A stretch of 64,000 nucleotides of DNA, taken from assembly GCA_018664485.1 (NCBI GenBank), contig JABJOE010000009.1, positions 76,635-140,634 on the forward strand, read 5' to 3'. Below are positions 4,787 to 54,123 of this stretch, piece by piece (position 1 is the stretch's first letter; every line of letters begins with the position of its first letter). The translations under genes were made by a program, and so were the position numbers. The notes beneath the pieces were generated by a model that searched no databases, was not told where the DNA came from, and saw nothing but the letters and a program-made list of their open reading frames with translations. Origin of the DNA: Candidatus Uhrbacteria bacterium (GTDB taxonomy: Bacteria > Patescibacteriota > Patescibacteriia > UBA9934).

Positions 4787-5161
4787 CTAAAGGCAAACCG
4801 GATAATGAATCACTCCTGATTGATCAGAAGCTACAGACTGCTCAGCGAGCATTCTCTCAACCTGCCTAACCTTGTCCATATCGCGAAGCACTTGTGTTAT
4901 TCCTTTGTCATCAACCCATTCAAACGCCACTCTGTAGCGACCCTTGAAGTGCTGCCGGAATATCTTCACCCCTCGGACTTCACGAGTTCCAGGAAGGAAC
5001 CAAGTCATAAGGAGTGACAAGAGCCACGGCCACTTCACGAAAAAGTTCGTGAGTCTCGTCTGCTCTCCAACAAGCCTTCTTCCACTGGAGAACCAGATTT
5101 CCAGCTCACCCTGTCCGTTCACTGCCGTGTGAACGGGAACCATTTCCTTGATAGATTTCAT
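4787..5161 (-). CDS. hypothetical protein, GC-rich cassette B (124 aa)
   Basis: The ATG sits immediately after the leader repeat, which ends in an AGAGGA Shine-Dalgarno sequence. No recognisable family. Confidence 0.5.
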   Translation of the reverse strand: MKSIKEMVPVHTAVNGQGELEIWFSSGRRLVGEQTRLTNFFVKWPWLLSLLMTWFLPGTREVRGVKIFRQHFKGRYRVAFEWVDDKGITQVLRDMDKVRQVERMLAEQSVASDQSGVIHYPVCL

Positions 5162-5225
5162 TCCTCTTTACTTCTGAACCGTAGTTTTGTCCGGCTCGCA
5201 GCGCCTCTTTGAAACCAATCAAAGA
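5162..5225 (-). repeat. conserved cassette leader, copy B
   Basis: Near-identical to copy A. The preceding hairpin TTTGA-ttggt-TCAAA covaries with CTGGG-atctc-CCCAG of copy A. Confidence 0.85.
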
Positions 5226-5276
5226 AGAGCGATAGAGCCCCAAAGCGTCACGCGCTTTGGGAAGGTCTGGACCTTT

Positions 5277-5600
5277 TTAGATCCGATCAATTCTTGCCAT
5301 GACACAAATACACCTAATAGTATCACCTAGTTCAAAGATGAAGCGCAGCGTTACCTGTCTAGCAGCTTGAATACAGGTGTAGACCAAAATGTTCATGGCA
5401 CCATCCTCACTGTAATGGCTTCCTGCACGGTACCAAAGTGGACTATCTCTAAGGATTTCGTCCAACTCTGCGAACCAGTCACTATTTCGAGACACCATCA
5501 CTCGATAATGAGACTCGTGAAGAAAGTCTCTCGGAATGAAATTCGGATTAGGCTCGAAGGTTCCATAAGGAACTGGAACTATGACTATAGAGCTACTCAT
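5277..5600 (-). CDS. hypothetical protein, GC-rich cassette C (107 aa)
   Basis: The ATG sits immediately after the leader repeat. No recognisable family. Confidence 0.45.
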   Translation of the reverse strand: MSSSIVIVPVPYGTFEPNPNFIPRDFLHESHYRVMVSRNSDWFAELDEILRDSPLWYRAGSHYSEDGAMNILVYTCIQAARQVTLRFIFELGDTIRCICVMARIDRI

Positions 5601-13191: not shown

Positions 13192-14370
13192 ATGGCTACA
13201 ACATCCAAATGTCCAAAACATGAAGTCTGCGGATCATGCAAATGGTCTCATATTCCATACAAAAAGCAGCTGAAGCAAAAGTTGTCAGATATCAACGGGT
13301 CTCTTGCTATCAAGAAGCTTGATTTAAAGTGTACGGAAATTCTTCCATCACCTGTCACAGACCATTACCGGAACCGAATGGATTTTGTGATCAACTTTGA
13401 AGGATTGGTTGGAATGCGAGAGAAAGGAAAATGGTGGCGCGTAATTGATAATCACACCTGCTTTTTATCAGACGAAAAAATCGAAAACTTATTTTCAAAA
13501 ATACACGCATGGTCCAAGTCTGCCGGCCTATCATATTTTGATCGTAAATCTCACGTTGGACTTCTACGCTACGCTGTAGTTCGCTCAACAAGTACCGGTG
13601 AGACTCTCATCAACATCATTACAAGCGATCCGTCGGTAAGTGAAGTTCCGGAAGATGATAAATCTACTCACAAGCCATGTGTCGAATCTGAGGAAGACAT
13701 TCGTGCGGTGCTTGAGAACCTGCAAGAATTAGCAGGGCCGACTACATTGATCTGGACTACAAACGCAACTATCTCTGACGTATCATTTGGAGAGAAAGAA
13801 ACTGTAATCACAGGGCCAGGTTATTTGACTGAGAACATTAACGGAGTTTCATACCGTATAAGTCCGCAGTCATTTTTCCAAACTAATCTATACGCGGCAC
13901 CCCTTCTGCAAGAAACCGTCGTTGGACTAATCGATGAGGATGCAAAAACTGTTTTGGACCTTTACTGTGGATCTGGATTCTTCAGCCTTCCGATTGCGCA
14001 GAAAGTAGATCATGTCACAGGTGTGGAGTTAAACGAGTTCGCCATTGCTGACGCCAAGATTAACGCTGAGCAAAATAAAATTACAAACGTTGAGTTCTTC
14101 TCTGCGAAAACTGAATCGCTAAAACTTACTGATTACAAGGCTGACACAATAGTTGTGGACCCTCCCCGCTCTGGAATGCACGACGATGCCCTTGCGTCCC
14201 TCATGGAGACCGGTGCCAAGCAAATCATATATATTTCATGTAGTTACAAAAATCTCGCGCGTGAACTCGTTACACTAACCGAGAAATACGAAGTGGCCGA
14301 CATGCTCGCAATCGACATGTTCCCCCACACGCCTCACGTAGAGGTAGTGTGTAATCTAAGGTTAAAGTAG
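13192..14370 (+). CDS. RNA (uracil-5-)-methyltransferase, RumA/RlmD/TrmA family
   Basis: N-terminal Cys cluster (CPKHEVCGSCKW). SAM-binding LDLYCGSGFF. Catalytic VDPPRSG near the C-terminus. Confidence 0.75.
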   Translation: MATTSKCPKHEVCGSCKWSHIPYKKQLKQKLSDINGSLAIKKLDLKCTEILPSPVTDHYRNRMDFVINFEGLVGMREKGKWWRVIDNHTCFLSDEKIENLFSKIHAWSKSAGLSYFDRKSHVGLLRYAVVRSTSTGETLINIITSDPSVSEVPEDDKSTHKPCVESEEDIRAVLENLQELAGPTTLIWTTNATISDVSFGEKETVITGPGYLTENINGVSYRISPQSFFQTNLYAAPLLQETVVGLIDEDAKTVLDLYCGSGFFSLPIAQKVDHVTGVELNEFAIADAKINAEQNKITNVEFFSAKTESLKLTDYKADTIVVDPPRSGMHDDALASLMETGAKQIIYISCSYKNLARELVTLTEKYEVADMLAIDMFPHTPHVEVVCNLRLK

Positions 14371-14381
14371 TGCAGCTCTTG

Positions 14382-14428
14382 AGGTTATAGGTTTCAAGTA
14401 TTAGGTTTTAGCGCCGATACCTAAAACT
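14382..14428. repeat. partial copy of the TAGGT-heptad palindromic (IVS-like) element
   Basis: GAGGTTATAGGTTTCAAGTATTAGGTTTTAG-cgccga-TACCTAAAAC. The left arm carries TAGGT heptads and the right arm is truncated. Confidence 0.3.
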
Positions 14429-14450
14429 CCGAGACTGATATAAACAGAAG

Positions 14451-14475
14451 AACCGTCCTTTCGGGCGGTTTTCTT
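14451..14475. terminator. bidirectional intrinsic terminator between convergent genes
   Basis: AACCGTCC-tttc-GGGCGGTT hairpin followed by TTTCTTATTCT. Confidence 0.6.
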
Positions 14476-18063: not shown

Positions 18064-18088
18064 AAATGTCACTTAGTTATTAAGTCAT

Positions 18089-18116
18089 TGAGTCATTAAG
18101 TCCTTGAGAGTATACT
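18089..18116 (+). promoter_or_regulatory. putative promoter (TTGAGT, 17 nt, TATACT) giving a near-leaderless mRNA
   Basis: The -10 element ends 8 nt before the ATG at 18125. Confidence 0.35.
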
Positions 18117-40230: not shown

Positions 40231-40238
40231 GTGTTGTT

Positions 40239-40690
40239 TTAGGGATTAGGGATTAGGTGTTAGGTATCAAAACTCATCAGAGACCAGCTTTCAATGAACG
40301 GATTGAGCTATTTAACATCTTCATAACCTCAGTAAGTGACCCCAATAACGGGTTGACACCGTCATCGTCAACAAACTTTAAACGTTTTGCGATCTCTATC
40401 TGTGTTTCCAATTCTGACCCTGAAGCATACGCAATATAAACAAAACGCAGAAATTCTTTTCTGGAGCCCCTGCCACGTCCCTCTGCAATATTAGAGGGAA
40501 TAGAAACGGCGCATCTCCTCATCTGTGATATAAGTCCATATTGTTCTTCTTTGGGGAAACTCGCAGTCATACGATAGACCGATACCACTAAGTCCATTGC
40601 CTTTTGCCACATGACTAAATCTTTATAACTCTTCACCTCCATACCTATAAGATAGTGTCTATCACCTAATACCTGATACCTATAACCTGA
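40239..40690. mobile_element. IVS-like element: long imperfect inverted repeat of TAGGT heptads enclosing a four-helix-bundle protein gene
   Basis: Left arm TTAGGGATTAGGGATTAGGTGTTAGGTATCA (40239-40270). Right arm TGATACCTATAACCTGA region (40661-40690). The arms are reverse-complementary with wobble pairs and abut the ORF stop and start. Confidence 0.45.
40277..40642 (-). CDS. four-helix-bundle protein (23S rRNA intervening-sequence protein family; Avd-like)
   Basis: 121 aa; …VYRMTASFPKEEQYGLISQMRRCAVSIPSNIAEG… is the hallmark block of the PF05635/TIGR02436 family. Confidence 0.8.
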   Translation of the reverse strand: MEVKSYKDLVMWQKAMDLVVSVYRMTASFPKEEQYGLISQMRRCAVSIPSNIAEGRGRGSRKEFLRFVYIAYASGSELETQIEIAKRLKFVDDDGVNPLLGSLTEVMKMLNSSIRSLKAGL

Positions 40691-40693
40691 CCA

Positions 40694-41416
40694 CTAAAAG
40701 AAGGTTCTGTCTTTTGAGCCCTTGATAAGGTTAAAAGCCTCCTCTCCTGAATCAACAATTTTTACAAGATCCAAGTCCTCCGGGGAGATCGTTTCAAACT
40801 CCTCCGCCATTGTCTCTTTGACCCACGAGAATAAGCCGTTCCAATAGTCTTTACCGATTAAAATAACTGGGATCGTTTCAGATTTCCCTGTCTGAATGAG
40901 TGTAAGGATTTCAAACAACTCATCCATTGTTCCAAATCCACCAGGCATATATACATACGCCTGAGCAGAAGCTGCAAGCATCACTTTTCTGGTGAAGAAA
41001 TAATGAAATCCCAATCCCTTGTTTACAAAAGGATTTAAACTCTGCTCCATTGGTAATTGAATGTTCATTCCAACAGAAATACCACCACCTTCGTGTGCAC
41101 CTTTATTTGCCGCTTCCATCATTCCGCCGCCACCTCCTGTAACGACAGTAAAGTCATTCTCTGCCAGTAAGCGTCCAAGAGTAACTGCTTCTCCGTACCA
41201 CTTACTAGTCGGAGCGGTACGTGCAGATCCAAAGATGGTCACCTCGCGTTTGAGCGTAGAGAGGAACTGAAAACCTTCCACGAACTCAGCCATTATTCGA
41301 AAAATCCTCCAAGTGATGTCTGACATCTTTGGTGGTTCTCCCGCCTGTTTTTTTGACTCAATTTCATCCGCGGCTAAAGGAATGCGGCAAATATCTTCTT
41401 GATGTTTTTTTCCCAT
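40694..41416 (-). CDS. LOG-family protein (cytokinin riboside 5'-monophosphate phosphoribohydrolase-like)
   Basis: GGGxGxMEAANKGA and PGGFGTMDE motifs. Confidence 0.8.
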   Translation of the reverse strand: MGKKHQEDICRIPLAADEIESKKQAGEPPKMSDITWRIFRIMAEFVEGFQFLSTLKREVTIFGSARTAPTSKWYGEAVTLGRLLAENDFTVVTGGGGGMMEAANKGAHEGGGISVGMNIQLPMEQSLNPFVNKGLGFHYFFTRKVMLAASAQAYVYMPGGFGTMDELFEILTLIQTGKSETIPVILIGKDYWNGLFSWVKETMAEEFETISPEDLDLVKIVDSGEEAFNLIKGSKDRTFF

Positions 41417-47219: not shown

Positions 47220-48271
47220 AGGTAATCGTTATGGTTTTGATCTTTTAGAATTTGACGAACTTCTTTTAGGCGTTGTGAATCTTCCAACTTGCAAACCAAT
47301 AATGCATCAGATGTATCAACAACGACAACACCTTCCAACCCCACAATAGTAACCAACTTTTCTGGCGGACCGTACACTAGCGATCGTTTTGTATCTACAC
47401 AAACAACCTTTCCTTTTGTAACGTTTCCACCCTCTTCATCACATAGCCTGTCGTGAAGAGAATCCCACGCACCAATATCACTCCAACCGAAGTCACCACG
47501 GATGATTAGCACGTCTTGTGTATCCATCTTTTCTGTCACTGCGTAATCAAAAGAAATTCTTTCAATCTCAGAGTATAAAGCGTTGTCGCCTGTCTTTTGG
47601 ATCTTCCTAAGAAGCGCCCCTGTTTCTGGCGCGTAACGATCAAACGCATCGAGGAAAGCGCGCGGCGTCCACATGTAATAGTTTGCATGCCAAAAGTACG
47701 ATCCGTCTTGCAAATACTGTTTTGCAACTTCGTAATTCGGCTTCTCTGTATGTCCTGCAAATTCAAACACCTCTATGTCTTCAATCGTTTCAAATTGTGA
47801 AGCAACTTTCGTATACCCCATCGCTGTACTTGGAAATACTGGAGGGATTGCAATGTCGAGCAACTTACCTGTTTTTATAATTAAATCCGCACCAACCTTC
47901 AAACACCGCAGGAATAACTCTTCGTCGTTTATATAGTGATCGGACGGAACGAAAACTATCGGTTCGTCCGGGCAAATGTTCATCAGGTGCGCTGCAACGT
48001 ATCCCATCGCAGGACCTGTATCACGCTTTTCAGGTTCGATGATTATGTGATCGTCTTCTACTTCAGGAAAATGCTCGGAAAGTAGCGACGCAAATTCAGG
48101 AGAGGTTGATATATAAATGTCTTCGGGAGCGAAAGATTTCGCCAACCGTTCATACGCATCACGAACTAAAATTTGGTCTCCAACAATGTTGAAAAACTGT
48201 TTCGGCCGATTAGATCGACTCATTGGCCACATGCGTGTACCCGCTCCTCCAGCTAGTAGAATTGCTTTCAT
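47216..48271 (-). CDS. mannose-1-phosphate guanylyltransferase (nucleotidyltransferase domain only)
   Basis: MKAILLAGGAGTRMWPMSR...; NDP-sugar pyrophosphorylase G-rich loop. No cupin isomerase domain. Confidence 0.75.
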   Translation of the reverse strand: MKAILLAGGAGTRMWPMSRSNRPKQFFNIVGDQILVRDAYERLAKSFAPEDIYISTSPEFASLLSEHFPEVEDDHIIIEPEKRDTGPAMGYVAAHLMNICPDEPIVFVPSDHYINDEELFLRCLKVGADLIIKTGKLLDIAIPPVFPSTAMGYTKVASQFETIEDIEVFEFAGHTEKPNYEVAKQYLQDGSYFWHANYYMWTPRAFLDAFDRYAPETGALLRKIQKTGDNALYSEIERISFDYAVTEKMDTQDVLIIRGDFGWSDIGAWDSLHDRLCDEEGGNVTKGKVVCVDTKRSLVYGPPEKLVTIVGLEGVVVVDTSDALLVCKLEDSQRLKEVRQILKDQNHNDYL

Positions 48272-48441
48272 ATCAACAGTATTAAGTGCAGACATATTAG
48301 CACGCTACAGCCTACCGGGCTAATACCGCCGAATGCACAAAACTCCGGCCCTTGAGAGAGCGCGGAGTTGAGAGTGGTAGAGGTGATGTAACTCTAGAAA
48401 AAGCTCCACGTAGAAGCACGTTCTAGAGTTGCACCGGTCAA

Positions 48442-49161
48442 TCACTGGTCGGGGTCTGCTTCGTCAGTCAGGTCAACGAATGGCATGTCGTCGCGGTGCG
48501 CGACCATGATGACGCGACCGTCCTCGTACTCACAGGCCACAGAGTAGTTCATTCCCAAGTACCAACGGTATGCAGGAGAGGCTCTCTTTGTACGAGCTAC
48601 AAATACCTTGAGACCGGCCATTGCCAACTTCCGGTAGCGAGCACGGAACAGGCGTTTGCCAATGCCGTTGGACCAGAGACGTTCAAGAACGAAGATCTCG
48701 TCCTGGTAAGCCACGTGCCCTTCTTCAGGATACCTTCGGTTTAGAAATTCTGCGATCTTTTCATGCCCGGTGGTTCGCTGTACACGACTGGGACGCAGAG
48801 CATATCCCCACGTACCCCCCACTACACCAGGCTTTCCGTCCTGTGTAGCGACAACACAAACCGCGTGCGGATTTTGCATTTGCTTGTGGAGATCAGCGAG
48901 AACATCACTAGCAGGCCAATACGGCACAACGAGTCCGCTACACTTCGGGCAACTCCCATGTGCCGGTGGGCTATCAAGTGGCCAAACGTACGAGCTGCCG
49001 TTGCTCTTGCAGTTTGTACACTTCCACCCCTCATTCCAAGGAGATCCTCCAAATACCCAGGTGTAGCATGTGATGACGTCAGACGCCAAGTCACACACAA
49101 CTGCTTTTTTCTCACCAGCAAGAGGTAAGTACCTGATGCGAATATCCTCAATCAATGCCAT
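48442..49161 (-). CDS. hypothetical protein in a GC-rich island (Cys-rich zinc-ribbon-like segment plus possible GNAT-like C-terminus)
   Basis: Start trimmed to MALIEDIRIR after a GGAGAGG SD. CTNCK...CPKCSG. IGKRLF...AGLKVFV resembles acetyltransferase motif A. GC clearly elevated. Confidence 0.45.
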   Translation of the reverse strand: MALIEDIRIRYLPLAGEKKAVVCDLASDVITCYTWVFGGSPWNEGWKCTNCKSNGSSYVWPLDSPPAHGSCPKCSGLVVPYWPASDVLADLHKQMQNPHAVCVVATQDGKPGVVGGTWGYALRPSRVQRTTGHEKIAEFLNRRYPEEGHVAYQDEIFVLERLWSNGIGKRLFRARYRKLAMAGLKVFVARTKRASPAYRWYLGMNYSVACEYEDGRVIMVAHRDDMPFVDLTDEADPDQ

Positions 49162-49284
49162 GGCCTCTCCTGCGTTACAGGGTTTGCGGTTGATGTGAGT
49201 TTCTCGAATTGAGAAACGGTAAAAGAACACATTTCATATAAACACAAAAATCCCCATATGTCCAGGAGGACTTTACATGGAAAC

Positions 49285-49367
49285 TTAGGTGGTAGGTATT
49301 AGGTACTAGGTTTTAGGCAGGTAACTCATCGCTGATACTTATAACCTAATACCTAGAACCTATAACC
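49285..49367. repeat. empty-site copy of the TAGGT-heptad IVS-like palindrome (no ORF)
   Basis: TTAGGTGGTAGGTATTAGGTACTAGGTTTTAGG - caggtaactcatcgctgatac - TTATAACCTAATACCTAGAACCTATAACC. The loop retains AACTCATC, as found next to the ORF stop in the full copy. Confidence 0.5.
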
Positions 49368-49649
49368 TTTCGAGCGTGCAGAGTGGGTAATGCGGTCGCT
49401 CGCAAAGCCCCGACCTCTGCGAACAGCCATGTTCCAGATTCAATCAAAAGAATGTTTGTACTAAACCATGTCTGTTCACTAAGCCCAGGTTCTTGTAATT
49501 AGTTATGTTCTTGATTTATTTGGATGAATATTTAGACGAAATGGATGACAGGCAAGGAAGCATAGCAGAGCTACGCTGACGAGCCTGGAGTGCATTGCAG
49601 TCAAATATACGACAAATAGATCAGAACGATAACTGATTTCAATAACCCC

Positions 49650-53911: not shown

Positions 53912-54123
53912 ATGTGAACTTACTAATATATAAAATTGTACTCACTCTTAATTGTAATTTATTATTTCATCCAATTTCCAGTAAACGCACGTATTTTAGA
54001 CTAGCCTAGGTGCCTGCCTACCGGCAAGGTAGGTGTGGGTGGCAGACTACGAAGCCAGCGGCTATCCCAGATACCCTTATTTCTTAATCGCATATATTTG
54101 AGGACAGTTTCGACGCATGGAGA

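Follow-up and report, generated by a model that had tools for sequence, protein, structure and literature searches.

A gene-less heptad hairpin and its four-helix-bundle-encoding relative in a Candidatus Uhrbacteria contig

The 64,000-nt stretch analyzed here (the window) comes from a Candidatus Uhrbacteria bacterium (contig JABJOE010000009.1) and carries, at 49285 to 49368, a hairpin without an open reading frame (ORF) whose arms are built from tandem TAGGT heptads. This solo hairpin, defined by heptad arrays, folding and alignment and assigned to neither strand, lies between two minus-strand genes, 282 nt past the stop codon of an M20 peptidase gene and 54 nt before the longest-ORF start (124 nt before the ATG) of a GNAT-like acetyltransferase gene. 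The left arm (49285 to 49317) reads TTAGGTG GTAGGTA TTAGGTA CTAGGTT TTAGG, its first heptad also being written CTTAGGTG. The loop of 22 nt (about 49318 to 49339) reads cag and then gtAACTCATCgctgatac, and it carries the octamer AACTCATC. The right arm (49340 to 49368) opens with TTATAACC and reads TATAACC TAATACC TAGAACC TATAACC T, so that each arm has four to five NNTAGGT heptads.

A repeat finder placed the arms at 49286 to 49316 and 49332 to 49362 (31 nt, 77% complementary), and registers shifted by one 7-nt unit were 79 to 83% complementary. A preliminary description of the locus had called the hairpin near-perfect, which overstates it: the stem is imperfect, with six base pairs and about one mismatch per heptad. 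The hairpin itself was confirmed. Folded as RNA, the plus strand reached a minimum free energy (MFE) of −35.4 kcal/mol (z −3.87, none of 200 shuffles being as low) and the minus strand −32.1 kcal/mol (z −3.63); folded as single-stranded DNA, it reached about −13 kcal/mol (z −2.2). The sequence is identical across four independent assemblies of the same population, and the hairpin is therefore not an assembly artifact.

An ORF-bearing counterpart lies at 40231 to 40693 on the minus strand. This complete element of 463 nt runs from the stop codon of a LOG-family gene to the ATG of a gene for a 526-aa protein without a Pfam match, which are the immediate neighbors of the gene inside it. That gene (40277 to 40642, minus strand) encodes a 121-aa four-helix-bundle (4HB) protein of the 23S rRNA intervening-sequence family (PF05635, E value 1.7e-40; TIGR02436, E value 9e-40), which also passes the NF008911 cut-off. 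It has at least about 8000 relatives at E ≤ 1e-5. Its nearest solved structure is that of Xanthomonas XCC0516 (2GSC), deposited as five chains, and the best homologues of both the 4HB and the LOG protein come from Patescibacteria and the candidate phyla radiation (CPR).

The 5′ arm of the full element, a heptad array at 40657 to 40696 on the minus strand, reads in gene sense (CTTTTAG)(TGGTCAG)(GTTATAG)(GTATCAG)(GTATTAG)(GTGATAG) and is followed by two degenerate units reaching into the ATG. The TAG stop codon of the LOG gene (40694 to 40696) is inside the outermost of these heptads; the LOG genes of relatives end in TAA. The 3′ arm, the second heptad array (40235 to 40270, minus strand), reads TTTTAGG GATTAGG GATTAGG TGTTAGG TATCAA on the plus strand, begins 8 nt past the 4HB stop codon and ends 4 to 5 nt before the ATG of the 526-aa gene. 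The arms, of 28 to 34 nt, are 74 to 84% complementary and pair to close the 481-nt element in its MFE fold as well as in its centroid fold. Neither a promoter-like nor a terminator-like site was predicted inside the full element. In the contig L176, a 1-nt deletion near the 4HB C terminus (about position 2840, equivalent to about 40299 of the window) changes the ending ...SLKAGL* to ...SLKLVSDEF*; the shifted frame runs on over GATGAGTT as far as a TGA directly at the 3′ arm. The deletion may be a true variant or an error of assembly.

The two loci belong to one repeat family, as had been proposed. Allowing up to two mismatches, TAGGTNNTAGGTNNTAGG gave 12 overlapping matches in the window against 0.30 expected, and all of them fell at three loci (14388; 40240 to 40264 and 40658 to 40689; 49286 to 49317 and 49338 to 49369). 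Four phased TAGGT units with up to four mismatches were likewise found at 14381 (plus strand only), at 40240 (plus) with 40657 to 40689 (minus) and at 49286 (plus) with 49337 to 49369 (minus), with none elsewhere in the 64 kb and none in 20 Markov shuffles. The solo hairpin aligned with the full element from which the ORF had been deleted at a score of 31, versus 8.6 ± 1.4 for dinucleotide shuffles (0 of 500; z 15), and the alignment was collinear through the left arm, AACTCATC and the right arm. As reported earlier, this octamer is present in both copies, in the solo loop at 49323 to 49330 and at 40271 to 40278, where it overlaps the ORF stop codon. The probability that the hairpin is chance low-complexity sequence or an assembly artifact is negligible; its short length is all that speaks for this, and it is refuted by the shuffle controls, by the alignment and by the recurrence in four assemblies. 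We therefore read the solo hairpin, at a probability of roughly 0.6, as an ORF-less member of a family of palindromic insertion modules that shares its origin with the copy at 40271.

The third locus is a genuine partial copy, and its description as half-decayed (14382 to 14428) was apt. It has four AGGT-type left-arm units at 14381 to 14428 on the plus strand, detected by both the heptad scan and the repeat finder, and begins 11 nt after the stop codon of the gene at 13192 to 14370. Its partner arm amounts to 10 bp only (14419 to 14428), the fold is weak (z −1.5), and an ordinary terminator-like hairpin follows at about 14449 to 14475. The segment 14376 to 14432 aligned at z 8.5 with the solo hairpin and at z 4.8 with the ends of the full element, so that the copies align far better than shuffled controls. 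A supposed GC-rich relative at 53990 to 54050 was rejected: it has no periodic array, its fold has a z of 0.15, and the alignment of 53986 to 54055 has a z of about 0.

We compared the site of the full element in five relatives, in which the LOG protein is 77 to 81% (L172, L174 and L175) or 70 to 71% (L181 and L182) identical to that of the window. From the LOG stop codon to the ATG of the next gene, for a protein of 524 or 525 aa, there are 1 to 9 nt in all five relatives versus 463 nt in the window. The empty site reads ...ACC TTC TTC TAA C ATG... and the filled site ...ACC TTC TTT TAG TGGTCAG ... CCCTAAAACAACAC ATG..., and the LOG loci of the five relatives have no period-7/8 arrays. Relative to this empty state, the full module is a derived and discrete insertion, placed after the stop codon of one gene and before the start codon of the next, co-directional one. 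Since the relatives have short spacers without arrays, arms and ORF arrived together, and the gene with its inverted heptad arrays is one insertable unit that lands between stop and start codons. Comparison of the filled TTTTAG...CTAAAACAACAC-ATG with the empty TTCTAA-C-ATG gave no clear target-site duplication; the outermost units resemble the target.

This site bears on a different explanation, in which the host generates and retains heptad arrays, by polymerase slippage or for a role in structure or regulation; this has been proposed for the Xanthomonas GGGAATC repeats, the Beggiatoaceae TAACTGA repeats and the cyanobacterial short tandemly repeated repetitive (STRR) sequences. The 4HB ORF would then be a separate cassette that lands in preexisting loops, and the hairpin at 49285 would be an empty site that never held an ORF. 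Coincidence of the ORF boundaries with the arm ends is what a cassette in a loop would give, and 111 of the 212 arrays in the survey described below lie far from any recognized 4HB gene. Xanthomonas also has 70 to 75 inverted heptamer pairs per genome, reported without a link to 4HB genes in the searched text of their description (PMC4692102), and an AGGT-heptad hairpin in the contig L117 has no 4HB gene in its stretch. The joint arrival of arms and ORF at the LOG site argues the other way, as do same-genome 4HB paralogs that each have their own unit, which a host scaffold does not predict, and the emptiness of the solo's own site in a relative. We consider an origin from a host hairpin unlikely.

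The solo's own site can be compared with that of the relative L092, which has 66% (M20), 77% (ManC) and 61% (YceG) identity to the window. There, 16 nt separate the M20 and ManC genes, versus 1354 nt in the window. The intervening lineage-specific block of about 1.35 kb (48296 to 49649, read on the minus strand) contains the solo hairpin, 282 nt of noncoding DNA, the GC-rich GNAT gene and two 3′ hairpins, and it is absent from L092. The anticipated presence and absence in relatives was thus borne out at both sites, the module being missing from five relatives and the solo-bearing block from L092; variation among near-identical strains was not found. Across the 80 loci surveyed in other genomes, the 4HB gene never neighbors LOG, the 526-aa protein, M20 or GNAT, which is consistent with independent insertions.

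Within this block, the hairpin might instead act as a local regulatory RNA, that is, as a 5′ untranslated or intercistronic element of the GNAT gene or the M20 transcript (an attenuator, stabilizer or terminator) that resembles the 40271 arms by coincidence. It precedes the GNAT start by 54 to 124 nt within that block, and this position and its strong RNA fold would suit such a role. The solo hairpin lacks the features of an intrinsic terminator, however: no terminator-like site was found on either strand, the GC content of the stem is low, and no T-run (U-tract) follows it. No promoter was predicted at the hairpin, and an Rfam scan of the 64-kb window matched no family, including rRNA, and revealed no tRNA. 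The unit family is also represented at two further, unrelated loci of the window, and the hairpin is collinear with the ORF-deleted full element. A purely local RNA is accordingly very improbable.

A protein profile yielded 80 4HB loci from one-genome-per-species contigs, 79 genes of which enter most counts. Their hosts are Patescibacteria, Bacteroidota, Ignavibacteriota, Planctomycetota, Gamma- and Deltaproteobacteria, Acidobacteriota, Gemmatimonadota, Firmicutes, Actinobacteriota and one archaeon. With a strict array detector (at least 16 of 21 matches at lag 7 or 8), period-7/8 arrays flanked 62 of the 79 genes (78%) on one side or both, and 27 of these on both. By eye, almost all flanks consist of tandem 7-nt (sometimes 8-nt) units whose sequence varies by lineage, for example TTAGCTN, CTAGGCA, GTGAACA, GGCGACG, TAGTGGT and TCAAGGAT. 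Flanking inverted repeats with a z above 5 were present at 49 of the 79 genes, and at 42 of the 79 the best partner of the 5′ arm was its own 3′ arm.

The arrays fit closely around the gene. The 5′ array ends a median of 12.5 nt before the 4HB ATG, and 23 of 47 3′ arrays start no later than the stop codon, so that this codon belongs to a unit. The 4HB gene is co-directional with its upstream neighbor in 64 of 76 cases and with its downstream neighbor in 61 of 76, and the median gaps to these neighbors, 59 and 51 nt, leave just enough room for the arrays. There were 101 arrays within 150 nt of 4HB genes and 111 in the remaining ~700 kb; as a control, 367 kb of CPR loci picked via the M20 gene and lacking a 4HB gene gave 29 arrays, many of them AT-rich and of low complexity.

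Two functions of the arrays themselves were tried as explanations and rejected. Stops in all six frames, as in an insulator, occurred in 30% of 4HB-adjacent arrays versus 19.6% for shuffled units, a weak effect, and all-frame stops were not enriched on a single strand (64 versus 64.6). Mimicry of Shine-Dalgarno or anti-Shine-Dalgarno sequences by AGGTGAT and ATCACCT units is not general, because the units differ completely between lineages.

Some sites recur within the survey. In five CPR lineages (L012, L022, L042, L045 and L072, at about 4900 to 5450), a 4HB module occupies one same junction, after a gene ending in a ...DPYRE-like sequence and directly before a conserved gene starting MQFKVPQF..., with units that differ per lineage (TAGCTTC, CTAGGCA, TTAAGTT and CTAGGTT). 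Either these lineages share an ancient insertion whose arms have evolved fast, or the junction is a hot spot for insertion. Six Flavobacterium loci (L028, L033, L039, L047, L060 and L068) have the 4HB gene at one conserved site before a gene starting MINLFNTHIE...; their 8-nt units drift between species (GGTTCAAA, GGTACTGA, GGCACTAA and GGCAAAGG), and both arms stay alike. Frameshifted or fragmentary 4HB copies lie beside intact ones at L038 (4995 to 5351), L049 (3717 to 3821) and L053 (5493 to 5594), and so the ORF decays in place in some genomes.

Gene-less hairpins occur outside the window as well. Inverted array pairs that enclose a 4HB gene numbered 31, with gaps of 345 to 542 nt in 29 of them, and about 15 to 17 pairs with gaps of 2 to 170 nt enclosed no 4HB gene. 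Such gene-less close pairs were found in L007, L019, L024, L034, L043, L054, L067 and L073 as well as in the window; full and solo forms coexist in many phyla. At four of these loci (L019, L024, L034 and L067) the solos have the same unit as the local 4HB module, those of L024 also sharing the module's inner nonrepeat stem segment AGTTTTTACTAATGCC, and a second unit family is present in L024, L043 and L073. Paralogous 4HB genes within one genome carry different flanking units (L029, L058 and L081), and the unit therefore travels with the ORF lineage and not with the host genome. The paralogs of each pair are a few kilobases apart and 26 to 58% identical (L029, 584 to 934 and 2472 to 2816; L058, 1847 to 2194 and 3436 to 3765; L081, 3320 to 3661 and 4986 to 5333). 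The AGGT-type heptad hairpin of L117, an unrelated metagenomic contig, lies at 1008 to 1052 and 1106 to 1134 and reads GGTGATAGGTTATAGGTGAGAGG... and ...ACCTATCACCTCTAACCT; no 4HB gene was found within its 5-kb stretch.

Taken together, these observations suggest what the module would look like. It would consist of two inverted arrays of about four to six repeats, each with a 5-nt core at 7-nt spacing (here NNTAGGT), wrapped tightly around a 4HB gene of about 120 codons in the full form or around a short loop in the solo form. The solo hairpin probably derives from, or was mobilized like, an ORF-bearing copy. Of the two histories offered in the preliminary description, precise loss of the ORF or a state before its gain, we lean toward the first: the joint arrival of arms and ORF at the LOG site makes loss of the ORF, or spread of an ORF-less derivative, preferable to a solo that never gained one. 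Part of the apparent precision is architectural, since the start and stop codons in the 4HB family touch the arrays or lie partly within them, and any ORF-less copy therefore looks like a precise deletion.

With no promoter or terminator predicted in it, the module would be transcribed by read-through from the flanking operon. The arms might then pair into an imperfect double-stranded RNA stem of about 30 bp, a possible substrate for RNase III by analogy with what experiments have shown for the 4HB-encoding intervening sequences (IVSs) of 23S rRNA, and cleavage of that stem would separate or insulate the flanking cistrons. The placement of modules within runs of co-directional genes, and arms that pair well as RNA and poorly as DNA, speak for this course. 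We put this forward tentatively, as a chain of events somewhat short of even odds. Less likely still, the evenly spaced cores could be recognition sites for a factor acting in trans, the best candidate being the pentameric 4HB protein encoded by the full copy in the same genome. Such reading of the repeats is suggested by the five conserved and two free positions of each unit, by the lineage specificity of the units, by the pentameric protein and by the four to six units per arm.

The make-up of the arms also allows a reading at the DNA level, in which the arrays are subterminal binding sites, as at the ends of Ac/Ds and Tn7, or iteron-like sites that act as double-stranded DNA, arm pairing being incidental. 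Arm units have five conserved and two free positions per 7 nt, and the consensus of the two arms is equal at 127 of 147 positions, the differences falling only at positions that vary within an arm. Several registers pair equally well, mismatches between the arms show as many A:C as G:U pairs, and the insertion is clean, with units specific to the element lineage. All of this would be expected of such end structures. The module has no transposase or recombinase, however, and no catalytic motif is known for a four-helix bundle of 120 aa; a target-site duplication was not seen, the energy of a cruciform or single-stranded DNA hairpin is weak, and the experimentally studied relatives, the rRNA IVSs, act at the RNA level (PMC4990558). 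We regard purely DNA-level ends as improbable.

Several observations weigh against an ORF-less insertion module that works through a paired stem. Most of the arm complementarity follows from the shared unit consensus and several registers are equally good, which agrees no less with spaced sites for protein binding than with a stem. Across 49 loci, arm mismatches comprised 55 G:U and 55 A:C pairs; there is no wobble signature, and so selection on the sense RNA does not visibly maintain the pairing. The octamer AACTCATC is weak evidence of kinship by itself and of modest significance, being a common coding-strand word with 8 copies in the window, and in 1.2% of trials a shuffled loop matched one or the other junction over 8 nt (p about 0.012). 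The copies in the window are alike only at the level of the unit, plus the octamer, unlike recently transposed MITEs (miniature inverted-repeat transposable elements), and the full element has no evident target-site duplication.

Further points against this reading concern the site and its history. The solo hairpin lies 282 nt from its upstream gene, while most full modules abut theirs, and the 419-nt spacer around it (49231 to 49649) holds no remnant of a 4HB gene (best E value, 0.6). We found no orthologous site at which one lineage carries the ORF and another only the bare hairpin, and all contigs with identical 4HB or M20 proteins have identical arms.

We compared the copies with known classes of repeats and elements. 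ORF-less IVSs are known. Correia hairpins of Neisseria are RNase III substrates, repetitive extragenic palindromes (REPs) are imperfect palindromes of 20 to 40 nt with a conserved GTAG end that are mobilized by RAYT transposases, and MITEs have target-site duplications and near-identical copies. The solo hairpin resembles REPs, bacterial interspersed mosaic elements and Correia elements as a short intergenic palindrome that would be co-transcribed with its neighbors and whose ORF-less form may need a factor in trans, but REPs and Correia elements are without the tandem 7-nt substructure of the window arms. Near-identical MITE copies likewise differ from the three copies in 64 kb, which share only the unit and the octamer. 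The solo hairpin is a member of no single known class, because it is not at an rRNA site, has no G-tracts and shows neither clear MITE-type duplications nor near-identical copies.

The closest likeness is to the rRNA IVSs of Leptospira, Coxiella burnetii, Brucella and Xanthomonas and of CPR 16S and 23S genes, which combine a PF05635 protein with stem-forming terminal inverted repeats. Of these IVS features, a stem is present in both window copies, the ORF family is found at 40277 to 40642 and is absent from the solo hairpin, and neither copy is at an rRNA site. The rRNA IVSs sit in helix 25 or 45 of rRNA, whereas the window copies are flanked by protein-coding genes in a window without rRNA. 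The window element also has longer heptad arrays, on both sides, and shows a clean filled/empty polymorphism in an operon spacer. In Coxiella, two to three tandem GACAGAT heptamers lie directly before the S23p ORF, the IVS has a 28-bp terminal stem, strains differ in the number of heptamers, and the first repeat is the site of RNase III cleavage (PMC4990558). S23p-encoding IVSs with terminal inverted repeats have been known since 1993 (PMC4990558), and the idea of the IVS as a selfish or mobile element is that of Ralph and McClelland (1993), as cited in PMC4990558. 4HB ORFs have also been reported in insertions of both 16S and 23S rRNA genes of CPR bacteria (PMC11270868), and 18 4HB genes inside cas operons, for example between cmr3 and cmr2 (PMC3936711). 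The presence of 4HB genes in cas operons and rRNA genes (PMC3936711, PMC11270868) may reflect promiscuous insertion into transcribed spacers and not membership in those systems.

Heptad repeats without a described gene are known from Xanthomonas, which has about 185 (GGGANTN)n arrays, mostly of four units and with the 70 to 75 pairs per genome being close and convergent (Rehm et al. 2015, PMC4692102). About 90% are intergenic, mostly between co-directional genes and near the upstream ORF end; they were studied as G-quadruplex formers and assigned no function, and their positions are conserved between two species, which is not an insertion polymorphism (PMC4692102). The searched text of that paper does not mention a 4HB gene. 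These arrays share with ours the 7-nt unit, the five conserved and two variable positions, the array length of about four units and the convergent intergenic pairing (22 nt apart in the solo hairpin, with both neighbors on the minus strand). They differ in their G3 tracts, which are absent from the TAGGT units (GG only).

The TAACTGA heptanucleotide repeats of Beggiatoaceae, cyanobacteria and Bacteroidetes abut start codons or overlap upstream ORF ends (MacGregor 2015, PMC4679880). They have stops in all three frames, their patchy spread across phyla suggested horizontal transfer, and 169 direct sets were counted against one indirect (PMC4679880). Like the 4HB arrays, TAACTGA and STRR heptamers are intergenic tandem repeats at ORF ends; unlike them, they are almost always direct and not inverted, enclose no ORF, and have the all-frame stops that are only weakly enriched in 4HB arrays. 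At the protein level, Avd of diversity-generating retroelements has a homologous pentameric four-helix-bundle fold, and the 4HB protein gave weak matches to bAvd, DivGenRetAVD and PHROG 3206, the last being the only PHROGs match for the 4HB and GNAT proteins. It scored 26.6 bits against the Avd equivalog NF033474, for which the cut-off is 80, and no reverse transcriptase or template/variable repeats adjoin its gene. PADLOC made no defense assignment for the 4HB or the GNAT protein.

The 4HB family (23S-IVS/S23p) is found in most phyla and has structures (2GSC and 2RLD), and we know of no function for it. With gene and arrays forming one unit, two old puzzles, the function of the 4HB protein and the intergenic heptanucleotide repeats, become one question, namely whether the pentamer binds its own repeats and RNase III cleaves the stem. 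More broadly, heptad-armed 4HB modules could be a widespread unrecognized class of mobile element in which the pentamer reads the repeats of its own arms, with roughly one subunit per repeat and five repeats per arm, and bare hairpins are nonautonomous, MITE-like derivatives. Reading of the repeats might then drive insertion at stop/start junctions or excision of RNA. This is a speculative extension that we think is probably not correct as a whole. If true, it would give the 30-year-old "IVS protein" a function, and the Xanthomonas GGGAATC pairs, possibly along with STRR and TAACTGA repeats, could be footprints of such elements. In the library of papers searched, we found none that ties inverted heptad arrays in general to a 4HB gene, heptamers having been noted only for the Coxiella IVS. 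What is new here is the joining of inverted heptad arrays, the 4HB gene and ORF-less derivatives into one unit across phyla; the Coxiella heptamers and the Xanthomonas GGGAATC inverted repeats were already published.

The remaining observations concern the surroundings of the solo hairpin and other parts of the window. The GNAT-like acetyltransferase gene (48442 to 49230, minus strand; longest ORF 262 aa, or 239 aa from the ATG at 49161) has a GC content of 52 to 55% versus 44%, so the preliminary description was right to place a GC-rich gene beside the hairpin. It is a near-orphan, with only 6 database relatives and a best non-self match of 34% identity, and is missing from L092. A 12/13 direct repeat, TTTCATAT[C/A]AACA, at 48266 to 48278 and 49232 to 49244 (966 nt apart) brackets the gene, and its left copy contains the ManC start codon. 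It looks like the duplicated target of a separate cassette insertion with the heptad hairpin outside, and thus the hairpin and the GNAT cassette may be separate events. As an inverted repeat around the GNAT gene, we found only a degenerate CTA-spaced stretch at 48305 to 48327, which the repeat finder did not report as a partner of the hairpin.

The 3′ region of the GNAT gene (48296 to 48441, minus strand) is structured (MFE −53.5 kcal/mol, z −3.67), with a perfect 10-bp stem, CTCTAGAA.../...TTCTAGAG, and a second GC-rich stem followed by UUUUG. On the other side of the hairpin, the 282 nt of noncoding DNA to the M20 stop codon (49369 to 49649) have no counterpart in L092, no 4HB remnant and no Rfam match. 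Three contigs of other assemblies of the same population (L089 and L090, which end 112 nt past the M20 stop codon, and L091, 153 nt past it) break 130 to 170 nt before the hairpin, which may reflect strain heterogeneity at the block edge or difficulty in assembly.

Elsewhere in the window, a direct array with an 8-nt period, GTCACTTA GTTATTAA GTCATTGA GTCATTAA GTCCTTGA, occupies 18068 to 18109 in a divergent spacer, between a small minus-strand ORF that ends at about 18064 and a plus-strand gene. The array lacks an inverted partner, and its fold is not significant (z 0.56); the small ORF looks glutaredoxin- or thioredoxin-like by eye (CPHC motif). The window as a whole has a marked strand bias, nearly all long ORFs being on the minus strand, with 328 occurrences of ACCT versus 148 of AGGT and 990 of CCT versus 502 of AGG.

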